Of a stretch of 56,113 bases of DNA, positions 31,524 to 42,898 are shown one piece after another. The stretch comes from a virus. Lineage: Duplodnaviria > Heunggongvirae > Uroviricota > Caudoviricetes. Numbering within the stretch: the first letter of the stretch is position 1; each line of letters begins with the position of its first letter. A program made the position numbers and the translations under genes. The DNA is taken from IMG/VR virus record IMGVR_UViG_2923334124_000002, one strand, 5' to 3'. Under the pieces are notes generated by a model. It was not told where the DNA came from. It was given only the letters and a program-made list of their open reading frames with translations, and did not search any database.

Positions 31524-32014
31524 GTATCCTCCGGATAATAAAAAGCCAGCTTAGTGCACTGAGTGCGGATATATTCCTGCGCCCCTTCCAGCTGCTTCTG
31601 CATTGTCATCAACCGTTCTCTGAGGATGAAATAATCCCGTTCAGCGGTGTCTGCCAGTCGGGGGCCGGTTGCATTATCCACGCTGGAGGTGCCGGTGGCT
31701 TCACGCACGGTACCGGGGCAGGTGGCGTTGACCCGCAGGCGCTTACGACCAGCGGCAACATCAGCGCGCAGAGTTTCATTTTCAGCTCTCGCATCGGCTA
31801 ATTCCTTCGTGTATCTGGCATCAAGCGCAGCGACATCTCGCTGGCGCTGCTGCATGTCAGTAATAGTGGCATTCGCCAGTTTCAGCTCACTGACTTTTTT
31901 ATCGCGCTGCGCTTTGTAGGTGATGGCGTTATCGCGGTAATGATTCAGCCCCAGACTAAGCACACCACAGGCTACCAGCATGACAATAATCACCACACAC
32001 AGAACACGGTTCAT
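31520..32014 (-). CDS. Rz: i-spanin Rz
   Basis: N-terminal TM segment, coiled coil, periplasmic Cys; contains embedded Rz1 frame. Confidence 0.8.
31609..31779 (-). CDS. Rz1: o-spanin Rz1 (lipoprotein embedded in Rz, +1 frame)
   Basis: [17 protein letters not shown] lipobox followed by Pro-rich segment. Confidence 0.65.
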
Positions 32015-32229
32015 ATCACCACCAACGGATTGCCCAGACCAGAACAGCAATGGCCACAATACGAATGGCAAATGCCATTGCCCGAATAAGTTCAGCACTC
32101 ATCTTTTTAAAGTTCACGATTTCAGCGCAATGACCAGTTTTGCCAGCCCATACAGCATCGGAGACACAGCAATACCAACAGCCACCCACTTAATAGCAAA
32201 AGCCAGCGCTCTGCTGATGTCATCAGTCA

Positions 32230-32364
32230 CTGTCACCCCAGCAGCCCCGACGAAGACAACATCACCCAGGCGAGGGACAGAAAAAGAGCAACCAGCATTA
32301 GTGAAAATGAAATACCGACAATCACACACAGGACCTTTGCCGGCGTTATGAGTTTGTCTGACAT
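32230..32364 (-). CDS. hypothetical small membrane peptide (44 aa)
   Basis: MSDKLITPAKVLCVIVGISFSLMLVALFLSLAWVMLSSSGLLG; SD AAGGGG 6 nt upstream; one predicted TM helix. Confidence 0.3.
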
Positions 32365-32366
32365 AG

Positions 32367-32462
32367 CTACCCCTTAATTGCCACAATTAACTGGGATACT
32401 ACCCATAAAAAAGGGATGCTCCAGACCAGCAAAAATTTCCAGTTTGGTAATTGACTAATCAT
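32367..32462 (-). CDS. hypothetical small membrane peptide (31 aa)
   Basis: MISQLPNWKFLLVWSIPFLWVVSQLIVAIKG; SD GGGAG upstream; hydrophobic. Confidence 0.3.
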   Translation of the reverse strand: MISQLPNWKFLLVWSIPFLWVVSQLIVAIKG

Positions 32463-32533
32463 GAGTCGCAACTCCCTAATCAGTTTGCTAAAATCAATCA
32501 AGGCAGCCTCCCATAGCTTACTGCCATAAAAAC

Positions 32534-32566
32534 AAAACCCCGCTTGCTGCCAACAAACGGGGTTTT
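32534..32566. terminator. bidirectional hairpin terminator (aaaaccccgcttgctgccaacaaacggggtttt) immediately after endolysin gene
   Basis: 9-bp GC stem with U-runs on both sides. Confidence 0.5.
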
Positions 32567-32656
32567 TACTTTTATTCACTTAGGTTTTGCCAGTTCACAG
32601 GACTTCGTGTTATCCGCCCGCGTTGGCCAACCTCATTTTTCAGCAAAATATTCTGC

Positions 32657-33190
32657 TTATCTGTCGATTCCCCAGCACGCCAGCGCGCTCTCCTGGTCAC
32701 GACGGAATACCTGACCGTAACAGTTATTTGAGCGAATACGGCAGTCTCTGCCACCGTCCTTAATCCACCAGCGAATCGCTTCGCATGCTCCCCTGCGATC
32801 ACCTGCATTAATTCGTCTGTAAAACGTCGACGGGAAACACTTACCGGGACCAATGTTGTACGGACAGAATGACGCGATCCCCGCTTTCTGGGGTTCGGTC
32901 AATGGCACTTTGATGTTTTTCTCCACCCATGCCAGCGCCTTATCACGCTCAATGGCGTTAACCCGGTCGCATTTTTCCTTCGACAACTTCATGCCCGGAA
33001 CGACAGGTTTGCCATCCACCAGGATGGCACCGCGGCAGATGGTCCAGATACCCGCGCCATCACGGTATGCCGTGGTGTGGTTACCTTCCTTTTCATCCAG
33101 AAACTGGTCGAGAATGTCAGGCGCAGGCGCACCAGCGGCAATCAGCGCCAGAACGGCAGCCGACAGGCCGTATCTGATTTTTGCGTTCAT
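32657..33190 (-). CDS. R: SAR endolysin (phage-21 R-type lysozyme with signal-anchor-release N-terminus)
   Basis: 177 aa; hydrophobic Gly/Ala-rich N-terminal segment LSAAVLALIAAGAP; lysozyme motifs E..EG...TAYRD.AG.WTIC.G. Confidence 0.85.
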   Translation of the reverse strand: MNAKIRYGLSAAVLALIAAGAPAPDILDQFLDEKEGNHTTAYRDGAGIWTICRGAILVDGKPVVPGMKLSKEKCDRVNAIERDKALAWVEKNIKVPLTEPQKAGIASFCPYNIGPGKCFPSTFYRRINAGDRRGACEAIRWWIKDGGRDCRIRSNNCYGQVFRRDQESALACWGIDR

Positions 33191-33358
33191 GGATATTTAT
33201 CAGGATTTATCGGTTTCTGAGCCCTGGATATGTTTATCAGTTCCAGCCTGTTGCCTCAGGCTGCTAACAGGTCGTAAGCGTAAACTGACCGCCGTATGTA
33301 GCCATCAGACGAGAATTGGTAACTTAGACGCCCATCTGATATAGACGGACATCTAAGT

Positions 33359-33784
33359 ATGGAATTACAGGACTGGCGAAAAGAACCTCGTAAAAACTAT
33401 TCGAATGAATTCAAACTTCGTATGGTGGAACTGGCATCACAACCTGGAGCTTGTGTTGCACAGATTGCACGTGAAAATGGCGTCAATGATAATGTTATTT
33501 TCAAATGGCTCAGGCTCTGGCAGAACGAAGGGCGTGTTTCGCGGCGTCTTCCGGTAACGACCTCTTCTGACACTGGCGTTGAATTATTACCTGTAGAAAT
33601 AACGCCGGATGAGCAGAAAGAACCTGTGGCGGCCATTGCGCCGTCTTTATCCACTTCCACTCAGACCAGAGTCAGTGCCAGTTCCTGCAAGGTGGAATTC
33701 CGTCACGGTAACATGACGCTGGAAAATCCATCGCCAGAGCTGCTCACAGTGTTGATCCGTGAACTGACCGGGAGGGGAAGATGA
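33359..33784 (+). CDS. tnpA: IS66-family accessory protein TnpA (orf1)
   Basis: 141 aa; HTH; first ORF of IS66-type element. Confidence 0.8.
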   Translation: MELQDWRKEPRKNYSNEFKLRMVELASQPGACVAQIARENGVNDNVIFKWLRLWQNEGRVSRRLPVTTSSDTGVELLPVEITPDEQKEPVAAIAPSLSTSTQTRVSASSCKVEFRHGNMTLENPSPELLTVLIRELTGRGR

Positions 33785-34131
33785 TCTCACTCCCATCAGG
33801 TACCCGTATCTGGCTCGTTGCCGGCGTTACCGATATGCGTAAATCCTTCAACGGACTGGGAGAACAGGTACAACATGTGCTGAATGATAATCCCTTCTCC
33901 GGTCACCTGTTTATCTTCCGTGGCCGACGGGGTGACACCGTCAAAATTCTTTGGGCTGATGCTGATGGTCTGTGCCTGTTCACCAAACGCCTGGAGGAAG
34001 GCCAGTTTATCTGGCCTGCGGTACGTGACGGCAAGGTATCCATTACCCGCTCGCAACTGGCAATGCTCCTCGATAAGCTGGACTGGCGTCAGCCAAAAAC
34101 ATCCAGCCGTAACTCACTGACAATGTTGTAA
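33781..34131 (+). CDS. tnpB: IS66-family accessory protein TnpB (orf2)
   Basis: 116 aa; conserved IS66 Orf2 pattern; overlapping stop/start with orf1. Confidence 0.85.
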   Translation: MISLPSGTRIWLVAGVTDMRKSFNGLGEQVQHVLNDNPFSGHLFIFRGRRGDTVKILWADADGLCLFTKRLEEGQFIWPAVRDGKVSITRSQLAMLLDKLDWRQPKTSSRNSLTML

Positions 34132-34161
34132 AAAACTCCTGACCGCATTATAAAAACGGTC

Positions 34162-35775
34162 ATGAGTCAGAAATACCTCATTCGCATCGCAGAGCTGGAA
34201 AGGTTGCTCTCTGAGCAGGCTGAAGCCCTCCGTCAGAAAGACCAGCAACTGAGTCTGGTTGAAGAGACGGAAGCCTTCCTGCGCTCTGCACTGACACGTG
34301 CCGAAGAAAAGATCGAAGAAGATGAACGGGAAATAGAACATCTGCGGGCTCAGATAGAAAAACTGCGCCGGATGCTGTTCGGTACCCGTTCTGAAAAACT
34401 GCGTCGTGAAGTTGAACTGGCTGAGGCTCTGCTGAAACAACGTGAACAGGACAGCGATCGTTACAGTGGGCGGGAAGACGATCCTCAGGTTCCCCGCCAG
34501 TTGCGACAGTCGCGCCATCGTCGTCCGTTACCGGCACACCTTCCCCGTGAAATACACCGCCTGGAGCCAGAAGAAAGCTGTTGCCCGGAGTGTGGCGGTG
34601 AGCTGGATTATCTGGGGGAAGTCAGCGCTGAACAGCTGGAACTGGTGAGCAGTGCCCTGAAAGTGATCCGCACAGAACGGGTAAAAAAAGCCTGTACAAA
34701 ATGTGACTGTATTGTTGAAGCACCGGCGCCGTCCCGCCCGATAGAGCGTGGTATCGCGGGCCCCGGATTACTTGCCCGCGTGTTAACGGGAAAATACTGC
34801 GAACATCTGCCACTGTATCGTCAGAGTGAAATCTTTGCCCGCCAGGGTGTCGAACTGAGCCGGGCCTTACTCTCCAACTGGGTTGACGCGTGCTGCCAGT
34901 TAATGACACCGGTGAATGATGCCCTGTACCGTTATGTAATGAACACCCGCAAGGTTCACACTGATGACACACCGGTAAAGGTACTGGCACCGGGTCAGAA
35001 AAAGGCGAAAACAGGGCGTATCTGGACGTATGTCCGGGATGATCGCAATGTGGGTTCGTCATCTCCTCCAGCGGTCTGGTTCGCGTACTCGCCGAACCGG
35101 CAGGGGAAACACCCGGAGCAACACCTCCGCCCCTTCCGGGGTATCCTGCAGGCGGATGCGTTCACAGGTTACGACAGGTTGTTCAGTGCAGAACGTGAAG
35201 GTGGTGCACTGACAGAAGTTGCGTGCTGGGCCCATGCCCGGCGAAAAATCCACGATGTATACATCAGCAGCAAAAGTGCGACGGCAGAAGAAGCCCTGAA
35301 GCGAATCAGTGAACTGTACGCCATCGAGGATGAAATACGGGGATTACCGGAGTCAGAGCGTCTTGCCGTCAGGCAGCAGCGAAGCAAAGTGTTACTGACG
35401 TCGCTGCATGAATGGATGGTGGAGAAGAATGGTACGCTGTCGAAAAAATCCAGACTGGGCGAAGCGTTCAGCTATGTACTGAATCAGTGGGATGCCCTCT
35501 GTTATTACAGTGATGACGGTCTGGCGGAGGCGGATAATAATGCTGCGGAAAGAGCGCTTCGTGCAGTCTGTCTCGGAAAGAAAAACTTTATGTTCTTTGG
35601 CAGCGATCACGGCGGCGAGCGTGGAGCACTGTTGTACGGGCTGATCGGCACCTGCCGTCTGAACGGTATCGATCCGGAAGCGTATCTGCGCCATATCCTG
35701 AGCGTACTGCCGGAATGGCCTTCCAACCGAGTTGACGAACTCCTGCCATGGAACGTAGTACTCACCAATAAATAA
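34162..35775 (+). CDS. tnpC: IS66-family transposase (TnpC)
   Basis: 537 aa; leucine-zipper N-terminus, zinc-ribbon CPECGG, DDE core. Confidence 0.9.
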   Translation: MSQKYLIRIAELERLLSEQAEALRQKDQQLSLVEETEAFLRSALTRAEEKIEEDEREIEHLRAQIEKLRRMLFGTRSEKLRREVELAEALLKQREQDSDRYSGREDDPQVPRQLRQSRHRRPLPAHLPREIHRLEPEESCCPECGGELDYLGEVSAEQLELVSSALKVIRTERVKKACTKCDCIVEAPAPSRPIERGIAGPGLLARVLTGKYCEHLPLYRQSEIFARQGVELSRALLSNWVDACCQLMTPVNDALYRYVMNTRKVHTDDTPVKVLAPGQKKAKTGRIWTYVRDDRNVGSSSPPAVWFAYSPNRQGKHPEQHLRPFRGILQADAFTGYDRLFSAEREGGALTEVACWAHARRKIHDVYISSKSATAEEALKRISELYAIEDEIRGLPESERLAVRQQRSKVLLTSLHEWMVEKNGTLSKKSRLGEAFSYVLNQWDALCYYSDDGLAEADNNAAERALRAVCLGKKNFMFFGSDHGGERGALLYGLIGTCRLNGIDPEAYLRHILSVLPEWPSNRVDELLPWNVVLTNK

Positions 35776-35835
35776 GCGTCAATACGGTGCTCCGTTGACG
35801 CTTACAACAGGTCAATACAATCATGAGGATTATTT

Positions 35836-36108
35836 ATGGACAATAACACCATTTCTCTACAGGAGTTGCTCGACAGCATTTCCAGGCTTCGGGAAGACGT
35901 GAATACCCTTACCGTCGCCTTCTCATATCTGGCATTCTCAATTCCAAGGGAACAGATGCAATCAACGCTGGCATCAATCCAGTTTGAATCATGCAATCCC
36001 AAATGGTCTCAGGAACAACAAGACTCTTTCAGGCGGCTTGCTGTATTACTGGATGAAAAATATGCTGGTAAAATTACCATTTCGGCGGACTCTTCAGAGA
36101 ACCCGTAA
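35836..36108 (+). CDS. hypothetical protein (90 aa), convergent with and overlapping the 3' end of 36074..36418
   Basis: good SD GAGGA 5 nt upstream of ATG; no family recognised. Confidence 0.4.
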   Translation: MDNNTISLQELLDSISRLREDVNTLTVAFSYLAFSIPREQMQSTLASIQFESCNPKWSQEQQDSFRRLAVLLDEKYAGKITISADSSENP

Positions 36109-36418
36109 TTATTCCCGGTAGTTTTCCTCTGTAGGTTATCAACACATCCTGCGCCTCTAAAATTACGGGGCGCTTTTCCGGCGACTGCTCATCCCCTTCA
36201 CATAACCCGGCAGCAACATCCAGGAAGACCTGTCTGATGCTCCTTCTGGCTGCTGCCTCATAAAACTCCAGCGCGGCACCTTCAACACGGTCCAGCGAGA
36301 TGTCCAGGTCAAAAATTTCACCGTCAAAGCGTTTTTTGTCCCGTAACGCTAAAGTTACCGTAACTTTATTCTCAAAATTGCGGATCCCTTTCACAATCAG
36401 TTCATAGTTTTGAGTCAT
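36074..36418 (-). CDS. hypothetical protein (114 aa) translationally coupled to holin; occupies the position of ydfR in Qin
   Basis: ATG 7 nt after holin stop with SD GGGGAGAG; soluble, no motif recognised. Confidence 0.5.
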   Translation of the reverse strand: MTQNYELIVKGIRNFENKVTVTLALRDKKRFDGEIFDLDISLDRVEGAALEFYEAAARRSIRQVFLDVAAGLCEGDEQSPEKRPVILEAQDVLITYRGKLPGIITGSLKSPPKW

Positions 36419-36422
36419 TGAA

Positions 36423-36638
36423 TTACTCTCCCCGTGCCGCCTTACGACGGTCCTCTCTGATTTTGAAATACAGGTTAGTCAGATATGTCAGCAGCCCAAA
36501 CAGCAGACTCCCCAGCACGCCTATTGCCGCCCACTGAGACGGGGAAACCCTGTCCAGCAACTGCAGGAACCAGTAGCCCGTTCCCACCGCTGACGTGGTG
36601 TATGACACACCTGTTGTGATTTTTTCCATCTGGTACAT
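36423..36638 (-). CDS. S: class II holin / pinholin (phage 21 S21-like) with dual start
   Basis: 71 aa; ...[51 protein letters not shown] closely matches remembered S21. Confidence 0.8.
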
Positions 36639-36788
36639 ACCCCGTCTCCCGTTATCCGGAAGCTGACAACAATAAAAAAAGCCACCAGTTAAGTACTGAT
36701 GGCTCTGATAACTCATGCAGGCATCTCAGACGACCCACTGACACTACCGGTGAGTTTAACGATACCTTCCATTTGACTGGCTCACTTT

Positions 36789-38657
36789 TTATGATGATGC
36801 CGGTGCATTTATCTCCAGCACCAGACTTTCTATCTCAACGCCATACGTTGCATTTTTGGTAATATCCGTCAGCGTCAGCGCATTCAGCCCCAGTGTCAGA
36901 CTGTCTTTTATGACCTGGAATGCCGGGCCAGCCACTCCATTCAGTTTCGGAGTAACCGTGGCACTGCCGGCGGTGAACACCAGCTCCAGCGTCTGCCAGT
37001 CGTTACTGTAATTCCCGAACTCGCCCAACTTTGTGTTTCCTGCTTTCTTGTGATGCATCAGATTCAGTTTGCCGTCTGTGGTCTGGGTGAAGAACGACAT
37101 CAGGAACGGGTTACCAGTCCCGGTCATCGCCACGACGTCAGGTAACGCTACATCGGTATACAGATAAATTCCCAGACCGAACTGATTGTTGGTCAGTGCG
37201 CCTGACAGTCGAAACTTACAGCTCAGTCTGCCACCCCGTGTCAGCAGGGAGACTGCGTCATCCACCGGGCGCGTCAGGGACCAGGCTTTATTGCTCTGCT
37301 TGGTGATCTTAAATACACCATCTGACAACTGAATTCCGCCATTCTTAATGCTCCAGCCCTGCGCAGCAGCATCTCCGGCTGTCGGCAACAGGGAGATTGT
37401 GCGTACGGATGCATCTTCAGACGGCCCCGATGGCGTGTCGCCGCCGGGCGAGGGTTTGATTTCCGGTGCCTTACCACTAATGAAGGCTAAGGTGCGACCG
37501 GCTACGTTCAGAATAGCAGTTGCCATACGATCGGGAATAATGCCACGACGCGCCCATGAGCTGAAATGCGTCGGGCGATTTGATGATACCCAGTTTTTGT
37601 TCGTTCGGGATGCCGAACCGTAATAACCAGACCCGGCAATATCAGGATCTTCTGACGGGTTGTTTGTCGGTGTATTAACTCCGCTACCATCGGTCATAAA
37701 GGGAACAAAATAAATCTGCTGGGATTCTTTACCTTTATATGCACCATATACCACTTCATATTGCGTACCGTGTTCTTGTTTCCACGCGTATGTCGTGTCG
37801 CCACAAATCCAGGGGACTGATGCCGGACTTCCACCGTGACACTGCGCCGCCAGCCCGGCAAGGTCAGCACGGAACTGCTGTACCATTGCAAGAAATGCTG
37901 CTGGCTGCTGGGCGTAACTGGCATTCGTCATATCGAATTCCCCCTGCATCCAGCATATCGCCAGCAAAACGTTTTTCGGGTTTTTCTGCAATGCTGCCTT
38001 CGTGCGGAAAAGCAGATCCTGATATAACGGCTTACCCACTCCCCAGCGAGCCGAATCCTGACTGGCCCCCGTGGACTCGCTGAATGTCCCCTCCGTGCCC
38101 TGGGTGAATGCCGAACCACCACGACAGCATGGTACCAGCAGGATCCCCGCATTATTAGGGATATACGGAAGCAGTTTTTTGGCAATATGTAAGCCCTGTC
38201 CGACACAGCCGTACTGCCCTTTGCTCAGGTCAGCCCGGGGATGGTTAATCGTACTCATATCCTGAACATCATGCAGACAATGGTCAGCAGGAATGATGTC
38301 GTTAAATACGCATACTTCACCACCGGGAGTCACTGTGTTACGACGGGCCAGTTGCTTAATGCGCGGATGGGGCGCATCGTATGAATCCGGAAGCGGAAGC
38401 CCTTCACCGTAAGCCATGGCATTGGATTGCCCGGCCAGTACGATGACGTAGTACCACTCCGGCTCAGTTGCACCACTGACGACCACATCACCTTCTGCTG
38501 CAATCGCCTGCATCAGGGTATAAGGGGTTATGGCCACCGGACTACCAAACGGCTGCCAGCCCTCTTTCAGTTTATGTGTCAGCTTTTCCGCAAGATCTGA
38601 CGGCGACGCCGCCCTGACAACATCATAGTGTTTAAATGCCATGGTTCTTTCCACCAT
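36789..38657 (-). CDS. nanS-p: NanS-p-type sialate O-acetylesterase (SGNH hydrolase) typical of Stx-phage late regions
   Basis: 622 aa; GQSN catalytic block; sits immediately upstream of the holin, as the esterase gene does downstream of stx in Stx phages. Confidence 0.75.
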   Translation of the reverse strand: MVERTMAFKHYDVVRAASPSDLAEKLTHKLKEGWQPFGSPVAITPYTLMQAIAAEGDVVVSGATEPEWYYVIVLAGQSNAMAYGEGLPLPDSYDAPHPRIKQLARRNTVTPGGEVCVFNDIIPADHCLHDVQDMSTINHPRADLSKGQYGCVGQGLHIAKKLLPYIPNNAGILLVPCCRGGSAFTQGTEGTFSESTGASQDSARWGVGKPLYQDLLFRTKAALQKNPKNVLLAICWMQGEFDMTNASYAQQPAAFLAMVQQFRADLAGLAAQCHGGSPASVPWICGDTTYAWKQEHGTQYEVVYGAYKGKESQQIYFVPFMTDGSGVNTPTNNPSEDPDIAGSGYYGSASRTNKNWVSSNRPTHFSSWARRGIIPDRMATAILNVAGRTLAFISGKAPEIKPSPGGDTPSGPSEDASVRTISLLPTAGDAAAQGWSIKNGGIQLSDGVFKITKQSNKAWSLTRPVDDAVSLLTRGGRLSCKFRLSGALTNNQFGLGIYLYTDVALPDVVAMTGTGNPFLMSFFTQTTDGKLNLMHHKKAGNTKLGEFGNYSNDWQTLELVFTAGSATVTPKLNGVAGPAFQVIKDSLTLGLNALTLTDITKNATYGVEIESLVLEINAPASS

Positions 38658-38902: not shown

Positions 38903-39238
38903 ATGAAGTGGATTGTGATTGATACAGTTATCCAGCCATCATGCGGAATATCTTTTTCAGTCATATGGAGTAAAATAAAATTAATAATCTGGTATCAATC
39001 GGATGCTTTCTTACCTCCTGAAAGTATATTTACACTGACTCACACAGGCATCATGCTCAATAACAAAGTGCTACCTGTAACCATTTACAACGTAGTACCA
39101 TTCAATAAAACATTCTGGAATTTAATCAAAAACAGCCAGGAATGCCCTACAAATACAGATAACGTATTGAATGAATGCTTTAATAACCGTTGCACTCTGC
39201 AAATATGTCCTTATGGACTAAAACAACAAAGTCCATAA
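38903..39238 (+). CDS. hypothetical AT-rich cargo ORF (111 aa, Cys-rich C-terminus)
   Basis: SD AAGGAAA 7 nt upstream; low GC versus flanks; no family recognised. Confidence 0.35.
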
Positions 39239-39685
39239 GGAGTTTACTCACATCTGACAAAATCAATATAAACAGCCCCTCCGGAGAGGGGCTGGAGAGT
39301 GGCGCTATGTGCCATTGCATGGTGCCGGGTGCCTCCCGGTGAATTCAGTACCAGCACCTGAATCCGCGATTATCCCATATACCTACTCGCTGATTGCCCC
39401 TCCGCACAGGGGGATTCACCATGCCAGTTTCTTTTAACAAACTCCCCGCAAACCAGACAACAATCAACCGCCTGAATTGTGAAGTATTTAAAAATTTCTC
39501 CCGCTAACTGATACCCGGCTAACAGTCTGGCGTTTTCTTTTTCAGCAACGGGAAAGCAACAACCACCACACCCGCCACCAGCACACCGTCAGCCAGCACT
39601 GACATTATCCGGCTGCAGCAATGCCATTCACAAAAACAGTAAGCAATCACTTTTTACCGTAACCGGTGATAATCCAGATATGTAT

Positions 39686-42076: not shown

Positions 42077-42898
42077 CTATCGCGTTACCCTCTTTAACTG
42101 CCGCTCCGCCCATGCCTCTTCAATGTCAAACCGAACCACCAACGTATCGTAAAAGCGTTTCACTGATTTTTTCCACGTATCAAGCGTGATAGCACTCGTC
42201 ACTTTGCATATGGCATTAAATGCCTCCGTTGATGGTAGTCTTTCACAGCCACGACCACCACAACGCTGGCAGTCTCTGATAACAGGCATACCACGTTTTA
42301 CCGACTCTTCACGATGAATGGCGACACCACGCCCACGGCAGTCTTTACAGGCAGTGGAAATCTCCCCCTTCCCTTTACATTCAGGACAAGAAACTTTCAC
42401 CACCTCCCGAATTTTTTTCCATTCTTCCCAGTAAGACGGATACACACCTTTCGTACACTTTGCCCATACTGGCGGCTTGCCATCCGGATACTGAACCTTG
42501 TTTGTAAAAACTTCGCCTTCAATAAATTTTTCCCCTCGGCAACAGGGGCACTGCTTTTTACTCGCTGCGCTGCGGGCATAATCCTCAAAAGCGTACGAAG
42601 CCATAATGCGCATCACTACCGGTTTTATTTCTGCCGGAAGTTTTCTCAACGCCGCCACACGATCGCACCGACTGAGTGCATAATCTGCCAGTAATTCTGT
42701 TGCCCGCGCCCTGTCATTCATACTGATGCCCATTTTCCCCAGGAACGCAGAAAACCCCATCTCAGCCCGATTCTGTGTCATGCCCTGCGCGGCCATCACA
42801 TCAGTGATACTCAGCGCATCTTTCGACGTTGAGGCCGATGCATCAGTCAGGCCGGGGGATTTTGGGGAGTAGTATTTCGGTAAATCTTCCAGTTTCAT
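42077..42898 (-). CDS. Q: late-gene antiterminator Q (zinc-binding type)
   Basis: 273 aa with several CxxC pairs; located between rusA and the late/lysis region. Confidence 0.7.
   Translation of the reverse strand: MKLEDLPKYYSPKSPGLTDASASTSKDALSITDVMAAQGMTQNRAEMGFSAFLGKMGISMNDRARATELLADYALSRCDRVAALRKLPAEIKPVVMRIMASYAFEDYARSAASKKQCPCCRGEKFIEGEVFTNKVQYPDGKPPVWAKCTKGVYPSYWEEWKKIREVVKVSCPECKGKGEISTACKDCRGRGVAIHREESVKRGMPVIRDCQRCGGRGCERLPSTEAFNAICKVTSAITLDTWKKSVKRFYDTLVVRFDIEEAWAERQLKRVTR

Follow-up and report, generated by a model that had tools for sequence, protein, structure and literature searches.

What are two small genes doing inside the lysis cassette of a lambdoid prophage? In the viral sequence IMGVR_UViG_2923334124_000002 (56,113 nucleotides; hereafter, the window), an Escherichia coli lambdoid prophage with its late operon on the minus strand, a 114-amino-acid (aa) open reading frame (ORF) follows the holin gene, and a 90-aa ORF (ORF90) runs convergently toward it on the opposite strand. 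A preliminary description of this DNA had regarded the two as extra material co-expressed with lysis, perhaps a lysis regulator or a toxin-antitoxin/abortive-infection-like pair. We found that both genes belong to catalogued families, and to that extent the finding as first stated is largely ordinary; what is new is that the pair recurs as a movable unit in other phages. We favor, at a probability of roughly 0.45, the reading that these are two separate accessory genes in a phage-21-type cassette, namely, a late ydfR gene whose product would most likely bind RNase E and RNA and a moron, ORF90, joined as a paired unit. Under this reading, neither gene would be a new lysis component or half of a toxin-antitoxin pair. 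The features on which the argument depends are as follows.

36423..36638, minus strand: holin gene S, encoding a phage-21-type class II holin (pinholin) of 71 aa (PF04971, "Bacteriophage P21 holin S," E = 9e-33)
36426..36433, minus strand: Shine-Dalgarno sequence GGGGAGAG of ydfR, read from the sequence, within the 3' end of the holin gene
36074..36418, minus strand: ydfR-family late gene, 114 aa, DUF1327 (PF07041, E = 7e-43; phrog_406)
36074..36108: convergent 3' overlap of 35 bp, in which the ORF90 codons ITISADSSENP-stop are antisense to the YdfR codons TGSLKSPPKW-stop
35836..36108, plus strand: ORF90 ("Ybl58"; phrog_2411, E = 1e-58), encoding an acidic, soluble protein of 90 aa, antisense to the late operon

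Two genes from catalogued families

The 114-aa protein is a plain member of the YdfR family. It matched PF07041 with 145.2 bits (cutoff, 25) over positions 1 to 91 of the 93-position model, and RefSeq names the identical protein "YdfR family protein." The ydfR ATG lies 4 nucleotides (nt) past the holin TAA, or 7 nt with the stop codon counted, and its strong Shine-Dalgarno sequence lies inside the holin gene. On a fair reading, this arrangement implies that translation of ydfR is coupled to that of the holin. The preliminary description had proposed as much for a soluble product, and it had also placed the holin and both ORFs correctly.

A related ydfR stretch was present in 4304 of the 5426 complete E. 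coli genomes that made up our survey set (~80%). The order S-ydfR-R-Rz occurs in viable phages, including mEp460, PhiR40_1, and Chlobot, and ydfR also lies directly downstream of the holin in BL21 and in the Qin prophage of K-12, where the order is essQ-ydfR-rrrQ. Far from being an unusual insert, ydfR belongs to the regular late-gene complement of many lambdoid phages. The idea that the interval between holin and endolysin holds extra material therefore stands for the 90-aa gene but not for ydfR, which is ordinary there in Qin, mEp460, and PhiR40_1.

The family is modular. All members share an N-terminal domain of ~72 residues; in most alleles, it is followed by a linker and then a tail (...ILEAQ.V.ITY followed by GKLPGRITGSLKTPP). 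Endings then differ: KW in the 114-aa form, ESQP in the 116-aa form, and a coiled-coil extension of 60 to 80 residues in forms of 176 to 196 aa. The YdfR proteins of K-12 (103 aa) and mEp460 (104 aa) have unrelated C termini. For the 114-aa protein, the predicted layout is a beta-beta-beta-alpha domain (aa 1 to 72), a linker, and a C-terminal beta-hairpin tail ending in ...RGKLPGIITGSLKSPPKW (AlphaFold model with a predicted local distance difference test score [pLDDT] of 64.7). The closest characterized relative is K-12 Qin YdfR (b1555; PF07041, phrog_406), which likewise follows a class II holin and precedes a lysozyme gene. Over residues 1 to 74, the two proteins are identical at 60 of 74 positions (81%) and similar at 71 (96%), and the conserved segment takes in K-12 residues 1 to 72, the part reported to bind RNase E. 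Past residue 74, the C termini are unrelated (...RGKLPGIITGSLKSPPKW in the window versus ...YLQHQYSFKIENPANKHERPHHKYL in K-12). Qin also differs from the window in that ydfR overlaps the start of the lysozyme gene rrrQ and no reverse gene is present.

The coding evidence indicates that ORF90 is a genuine gene too. It matched phrog_2411 from end to end, and a Shine-Dalgarno sequence of its own (GAGGA, 35825..35829, plus strand) lies six nt ahead of its ATG. Pairwise ratios of nonsynonymous to synonymous substitution rates (dN/dS) were 0.23 to 0.41, with dS as high as 1.1, and of the six frames, only that of ORF90 had no stop in any of the 13 homologues, at identities as low as 25%. Those two results and the phrog_2411 membership are the grounds on which we call it real. 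In addition, the motifs AFSYLAF and WS..QQ.SF are conserved. One candidate for a distant homologue, P0061, was rejected as a double-frameshifted copy and not a true relative.

We found ORF90 in 1206 of the 5426 genomes (22%), in three sequence classes, and its homologues extend to Citrobacter, Yersinia, and uncultured phages. The family is nonetheless tiny, with 21 representatives among 1.84 billion protein clusters, and catalogues name its members only "hypothetical protein" or "Ybl58." The preliminary description had asked whether the 114-aa ORF might be simple YdfR and the 90-aa ORF a sequence without conservation; the former is the case, and the latter is not. Both ORFs are, as it had supposed, genuine genes within a phage-21-type lysis cassette, the second convergent on the first with exactly 35 bp of overlap.

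Database searches offered little on function. YdfR had no match beyond DUF1327 in Pfam, NCBIfam, or PADLOC, and ORF90 had none in the same three apart from a sub-threshold, meaningless NCBIfam match. In PHROGs, both genes fall only in families without an assigned function, and sequence-profile searches of the PDB with both families returned no match. ORF90 is predicted to fold as a three-helix bundle (AlphaFold model pLDDT, 70.8), and a Foldseek search with this model against the PDB and BFVD gave no match at E ≤ 0.001. Nor did a membrane-spanning segment appear in either protein by Kyte-Doolittle analysis (19-residue window), where maximum scores were 0.69 for YdfR and 0.75 for ORF90, versus 1.70 for the holin and 1.74 for the signal anchor of the endolysin. 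A literature search on DUF1327, ydfR with holin, ybl58, and the RefSeq accessions yielded no function beyond one paper on RNase E, discussed below.

A convergent unit that recurs in other phages

The pairing seen in the window is conserved outside E. coli, and treating the two genes as a unit, as the preliminary description did, was reasonable. In all seven paired contexts, the 3' ends overlap, by 7 to 47 nt. The partner of ORF90 in Citrobacter is a 238-aa protein encoded upstream of a holin and ending in ...IEGKIRNEKITGSLRVPMKL, while that in Yersinia has 71 aa, is encoded after tail gene I, and ends in ...GELYSEKITGSLFAPLSAHPSE. On viral contig L095, the partner (85 aa; ...IKGNIFSEQIFGELKKPPSY) lies between tail genes M and L, as does that of L103 (60 aa; ...REGKLILRDGSLVSF), which has a related tail, GKLILRDGSL. 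The partner on viral contig L101 (62 aa; ...IKGGQLRYKRLTGDILIPLES) comes after Rz, and L099 carries a convergent 85-aa partner without the motif described next.

Within the last 20 residues, the motif [IL][TF]G[SDE][LI] was found in 5 of the 7 partners (those of E. coli, Citrobacter, Yersinia, L095, and L101) versus none of the 859 other ORFs of these loci. Profile alignment with hhalign singled out exactly the YdfR tail in each partner. For the Citrobacter and L095 partners, the motif falls outside the segment that overlaps ORF90 coding sequence and is therefore conserved as protein sequence. Orientation was equally regular: in six of six phage contexts, the partner was sense with the late genes and ORF90 antisense. 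Judged from these sequences, ORF90 and the "GKLxxxITGSL" tail are a mobile convergent two-gene unit that occupies differing late-operon sites among phages.

Neither BLASTP nor hhalign showed a YdfR-like N-domain in the 238-aa Citrobacter protein, of which the tail alone aligned, and the resemblance noted with the Salmonella homologue is a by-eye impression only. Scans of viral contigs with the distant homologues P0192, P0193, P0194, and P0197 gave no match. In prophages of Citrobacter (L010, 5087..5770) and Salmonella (L105, 21..2412), the YdfR-like gene, upstream of the holin, adjoins one or two HicA/HicB toxin-antitoxin pairs.

The long YdfR variants have an organization of their own. P0069, P0091, P0095, P0148, and P0154 (176 to 196 aa) run past ...ITGSLKTPP into a coil, TALRSEKDDIESPIEKLEGRVADLNKKL..., similar to the coil at the N terminus of the short proteins paired with ORF90 in Yersinia, L095, and L101. 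This extension may represent a second module acquired by fusion. That these variants read antisense through ORF90 was considered and ruled out, as the extensions are an unrelated coiled-coil module.

ORF90 also behaves as a moron, a view that rests on three observations. First, in comparison with PhiR40_1, which has the 116-aa YdfR, ORF90 is a clean indel of ~290 bp with sharp junctions, spanning from about YdfR codon 113 (just past ...SLKTPP) to ~55 nt upstream of the R ATG. Second, its G+C content is 0.445, versus 0.537 to 0.551 for S, R, and Rz. Third, diverged copies exist by themselves next to iha, next to IS110, and, on a plasmid, next to AIDA autotransporter genes. More distant relatives lie between dinI and bssS or adjoin a P-type ATPase gene. 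One of them, P0197 (29% identity), is chromosomal, on a metagenome-assembled Enterobacterales contig (L097, 3001..3279), where it sits directly downstream of the SOS gene dinI in the same orientation and upstream of bssS. This context hints that the family includes a host-side member, possibly one linked to damage.

The bor gene of phage lambda is a reverse-oriented, lysogen-expressed moron beside the lysis genes. ORF90 is likewise a small insert that is present or absent among otherwise collinear phages, opposite to the late operon, at the lysis cassette, and lower in G+C than its neighbors. Unlike bor, it encodes a predicted cytoplasmic helical protein and not a lipoprotein, it has no clear terminator, its 3' end overlaps a late gene, and it is tied to a partner motif across phages.

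Insertion sequences and the surrounding late operon

The pair lies between holin and endolysin, as first described, but does not abut the endolysin gene. A 2532-bp insertion sequence (IS), overlooked at that stage, parts ORF90, ydfR, and S from the endolysin gene. The elements of this interval and of the wider late operon are listed here.

33274..35805, plus strand: IS66-family element, ISEc23-like, 2532 bp (PF01527, PF05717, PF03050)
33359..33784, 33781..34131, and 34162..35775: ORFs of the IS66-family element
33266..33273: 8-bp duplicate of the target site, AACAGGTC, on the left of the IS
35806..35813: matching 8-bp duplicate, AACAGGTC, on the right of the IS, 22 nt ahead of the ORF90 start codon
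35816..35821, plus strand: putative -10 hexamer of ORF90, TACAAT, proposed from the TAnAAT position kept in the homologue alignment
33251..33256: putative, weak -35 hexamer of ORF90, TTGCCT, at a 19-nt spacer without the IS and now beyond it
32657..33190, minus strand: endolysin R, a lysozyme of 177 aa (PF00959, E = 9e-24; phrog_7)
31520..32014, minus strand: Rz-type spanin, final gene of the lysis cassette (PF03245, E = 7e-51)
36789..38657: sialate-esterase-like gene of the late operon, before the lysis genes
42077..42898: antiterminator Q of the late operon

The element has the three-ORF layout of its family, a DDE_Tnp_IS66 transposase, and terminal repeats GTAAGCG...CGCTTAC. With the IS and one duplicate removed, the resulting empty site matched many genomes at 100% identity, while the IS66 junction was present in at most 1 of the 5426 genomes; the insertion is therefore recent and private to the lineage. 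It sits in the spacer between the putative -35 and -10 hexamers of ORF90, and S-ydfR is now separated from R-Rz by 2.5 kb of antisense IS DNA, which would uncouple the two halves of the cassette. The IS end contributes a TTGACG that a scan paired with AATCAT, a match no better than chance.

Two further insertions fall nearby. In strain H105 (L001, 3761..4930), the IS3-family element ISEc52 has inserted 5 bp away from the IS66 element's position, with a target duplication of 3 bp, ACA. In ECC-1470 (L008, 1323..2492), ISEc52 lies inside the 5' end of ORF90, where it removes the N terminus and leaves ydfR intact. These independent hits mark the short stretch upstream of ORF90 as a repeated IS target.

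The lysis genes themselves are of the expected type. The holin has a Met1/Met4 dual start (MYQM), and RefSeq labels an identical sequence "class II holin family protein." The endolysin has a Gly/Ala-rich N terminus that resembles a signal-anchor-release (SAR) segment, with its Kyte-Doolittle maximum of 1.74 at residue 9, and in strain H105, whose prophage is identical, Rz carries the label "lysis protein." Between endolysin and Rz, genes that usually abut, there is a gap of ~640 bp (32015..32656). In the H105 prophage, RefSeq has only three tiny hypothetical ORFs there, and a 90-aa ORF at 32114..32386 had no Pfam match. The gap may be a second accessory insert or remnant within the cassette. 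A different layout is found in phage phiSTEC1575-Stx2k (L003, 2315..4333), where S-ydfR-ORF90 is followed by two more holin-like genes and an M15 peptidase gene, with no lysozyme. This phage thus carries two holin systems, and the trio moves independently of endolysin type.

The late operon runs from antiterminator Q through a DNA methylase gene, the STnc100 small RNA, and the sialate-esterase-like gene to the lysis genes, followed by HNH and terminase genes. The 636-bp region under study is 100% identical to ST131-type genomes. STnc100 (RF02076) gave a full-length match at 39264..39453 on the minus strand (132 bits, E = 8e-30), in the late leader region with the methylase/tRNA area on one side and the esterase gene on the other, and an Rfam search of 35.8 to 36.7 kb found no RNA family. 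Upstream of the esterase gene, a reverse-oriented gene at 38903..39238 (plus strand) encodes a 111-aa product that had no Pfam match here and is annotated as anti-adapter protein IraM in an identical prophage; it represents a further moron in reverse orientation, located in the late leader. Finally, the late-operon strand carries, a short distance before the holin start, a 12-bp stem-loop with TTTTTATTGTT behind it (36678..36706, minus strand). This element resembles a terminator placed between the esterase gene and S, and late transcription would need to read through it.

Weighing the explanations

How might the two genes work? The best available lead for YdfR is its K-12 paralogue. Göpel et al. 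(RNA Biol 2026; PMC13232886) reported that K-12 YdfR residues 1 to 72 bind the N-terminal half of RNase E in a two-hybrid assay and that the protein co-purified with residues 1 to 598 of RNase E and brought down nucleic acid that resisted DNase. Since the N-domain of the window allele is 81% identical to that of this paralogue, RNA and the catalytic half of the host's RNase E are the most likely ligands of the beta3-alpha domain of the 114-aa protein. Transcription of the gene would start at the late promoter that depends on Q, with translation coupled to that of the holin, and the gene product, predicted to be soluble and cytoplasmic, probably tunes RNA decay late in infection rather than acting on the envelope.

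Other phages encode modulators of RNase E, among them Dip of phiKZ, gp0.7 of T7, and Srd of T4, and Dip binds the C-terminal scaffold of the enzyme. YdfR would differ from these in its reported contact with the catalytic N-terminal half, in having no sequence relationship to them, and in an effect on RNA decay that is so far minimal (PMC13232886).

ORF90, in turn, would be a reverse-oriented moron in a compact cassette of ~290 bp with a putative short promoter and leader of its own. A TAnAAT hexamer ~20 nt before the ATG is kept across its homologues, reading TATAAT in the copy beside iha, and a hairpin with a T-run (36151..36176) is retained in that copy as well. The gene is probably expressed from the prophage in the lysogen. 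With overlapping 3' ends and no clear terminator between the two genes, antiterminated late transcription crossing ORF90 antisense probably shuts it off. The conserved pairing further suggests that the products or transcripts of ORF90 and the tail interact.

Several points weigh against the favored reading. The evidence on RNase E and RNA was obtained with the K-12 paralogue, which was overexpressed and differs in its C terminus, and overexpression of ydfR altered only a few transcripts (PMC13232886). The linkage could simply mean that two tiny, physically overlapping genes are inherited en bloc, and in the 116-aa alleles YdfR bears the ITGSL tail in the absence of ORF90. Scans for consensus promoters called none for ORF90, the candidate hexamers going uncalled because of their 19-nt spacer; no consensus terminator was called either, and the hairpin at 36151..36176 lies outside the minimum-energy fold (z = -0.74).

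Three alternatives survive best, though we consider each of them unlikely. In the most elaborate, the pair is a mobile convergent cassette that serves temperate phages of Enterobacterales as a toggle between lysogeny and lysis: ORF90 would be made from the repressed prophage, then silenced by late antisense transcription and neutralized as the partner tail binds it directly, and in E. coli that tail would be fused to the YdfR domain that binds RNase E and RNA. If this improbable scheme held, ORF90 would perhaps be an exclusion or host-modifying factor, and the toggle would be tied to RNA decay.

A related and similarly doubtful proposal makes ORF90 a defense or exclusion factor expressed in the lysogen, with the late-strand partner tail as the phage's own antidote during lytic growth. 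The invariant orientation in six of six phage contexts, the conserved partner motif, the moron-like mobility and composition, and the retention of stand-alone ORF90 copies in islands and plasmids all fit. However, ORF90 has no similarity to a known defense protein in PADLOC, it is a 90-aa helical protein without an enzymatic motif, and its putative promoter has been hit repeatedly by IS elements at no evident cost.

The third alternative is that YdfR is a cytoplasmic regulator of lysis timing, acting on the pinholin/antiholin or on release of the SAR endolysin, with ORF90 as an antisense brake on S-ydfR-R in the lysogen. A genetic screen cited in the RNase E paper tied K-12 ydfR to envelope integrity (PMC13232886). 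Also in line with this idea, ydfR is fixed between S and R and coupled to S, and YdfR-like proteins are encoded just upstream of holins in Citrobacter and Salmonella. Accessory regulators of SAR endolysins also exist, reportedly in phage Mu, for example. Yet phage 21 is not known to need more than S, R, and Rz for lysis, and the known antiholins, like the protein that regulates SAR endolysin release in Mu, are, to our knowledge, membrane proteins, whereas YdfR has neither a membrane segment nor a signal sequence. Furthermore, the unit of tail plus ORF90 is also found well away from lysis genes, both in the interval between tail genes M and L and behind tail gene I. On balance, a role in lysis timing seems improbable.

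A toxin-antitoxin or abortive-infection pair co-expressed with lysis, as the preliminary description had suggested, is less likely still, and we regard it as a poor fit. Like a type II toxin-antitoxin system, the locus consists of two small adjacent genes on a mobile element that stay linked across genera, in a convergent overlapping layout, and they occupy accessory positions in prophages, with HicAB neighbors in Citrobacter and Salmonella. However, the genes are convergent and not one operon, and neither matched a toxin, antitoxin, or defense model in Pfam, NCBIfam, or PADLOC. Each is also found alone: ORF90 beside iha, AIDA genes, dinI-bssS, and IS110, and tail-bearing YdfR in viable phages. 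Insertions have split the putative ORF90 promoter in the window and in H105 and removed its N terminus in ECC-1470 while ydfR stayed intact, and growth arrest was described for YegJ only, not for YdfR (PMC13232886). The weakest alternative, that ORF90 is a chance antisense frame and ydfR alone is real, draws on its lack of a Pfam family, its position antisense within a strongly transcribed operon, and the failure to find a consensus promoter or terminator, but it is effectively refuted already by the substitution ratios at high dS, the sole stop-free frame, the conserved motifs, and the occurrence of ORF90 independently of ydfR.

Under the favored reading of two separate accessory genes that form a paired unit, ORF90 and the YdfR tail motif move jointly between lysis and tail modules and so present a testable two-gene moron with a strict orientation rule. 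The repeated IS hits between ORF90 and the endolysin gene in ST131-type prophages bear on the uncoupling of lysis cassettes in resident prophages. For the YdfR family, DUF1327 is among the commonest uncharacterized late genes of E. coli prophages, and the position of ydfR as the second, holin-coupled cistron of the late operon gives the report of RNase E binding a biological context worth testing.

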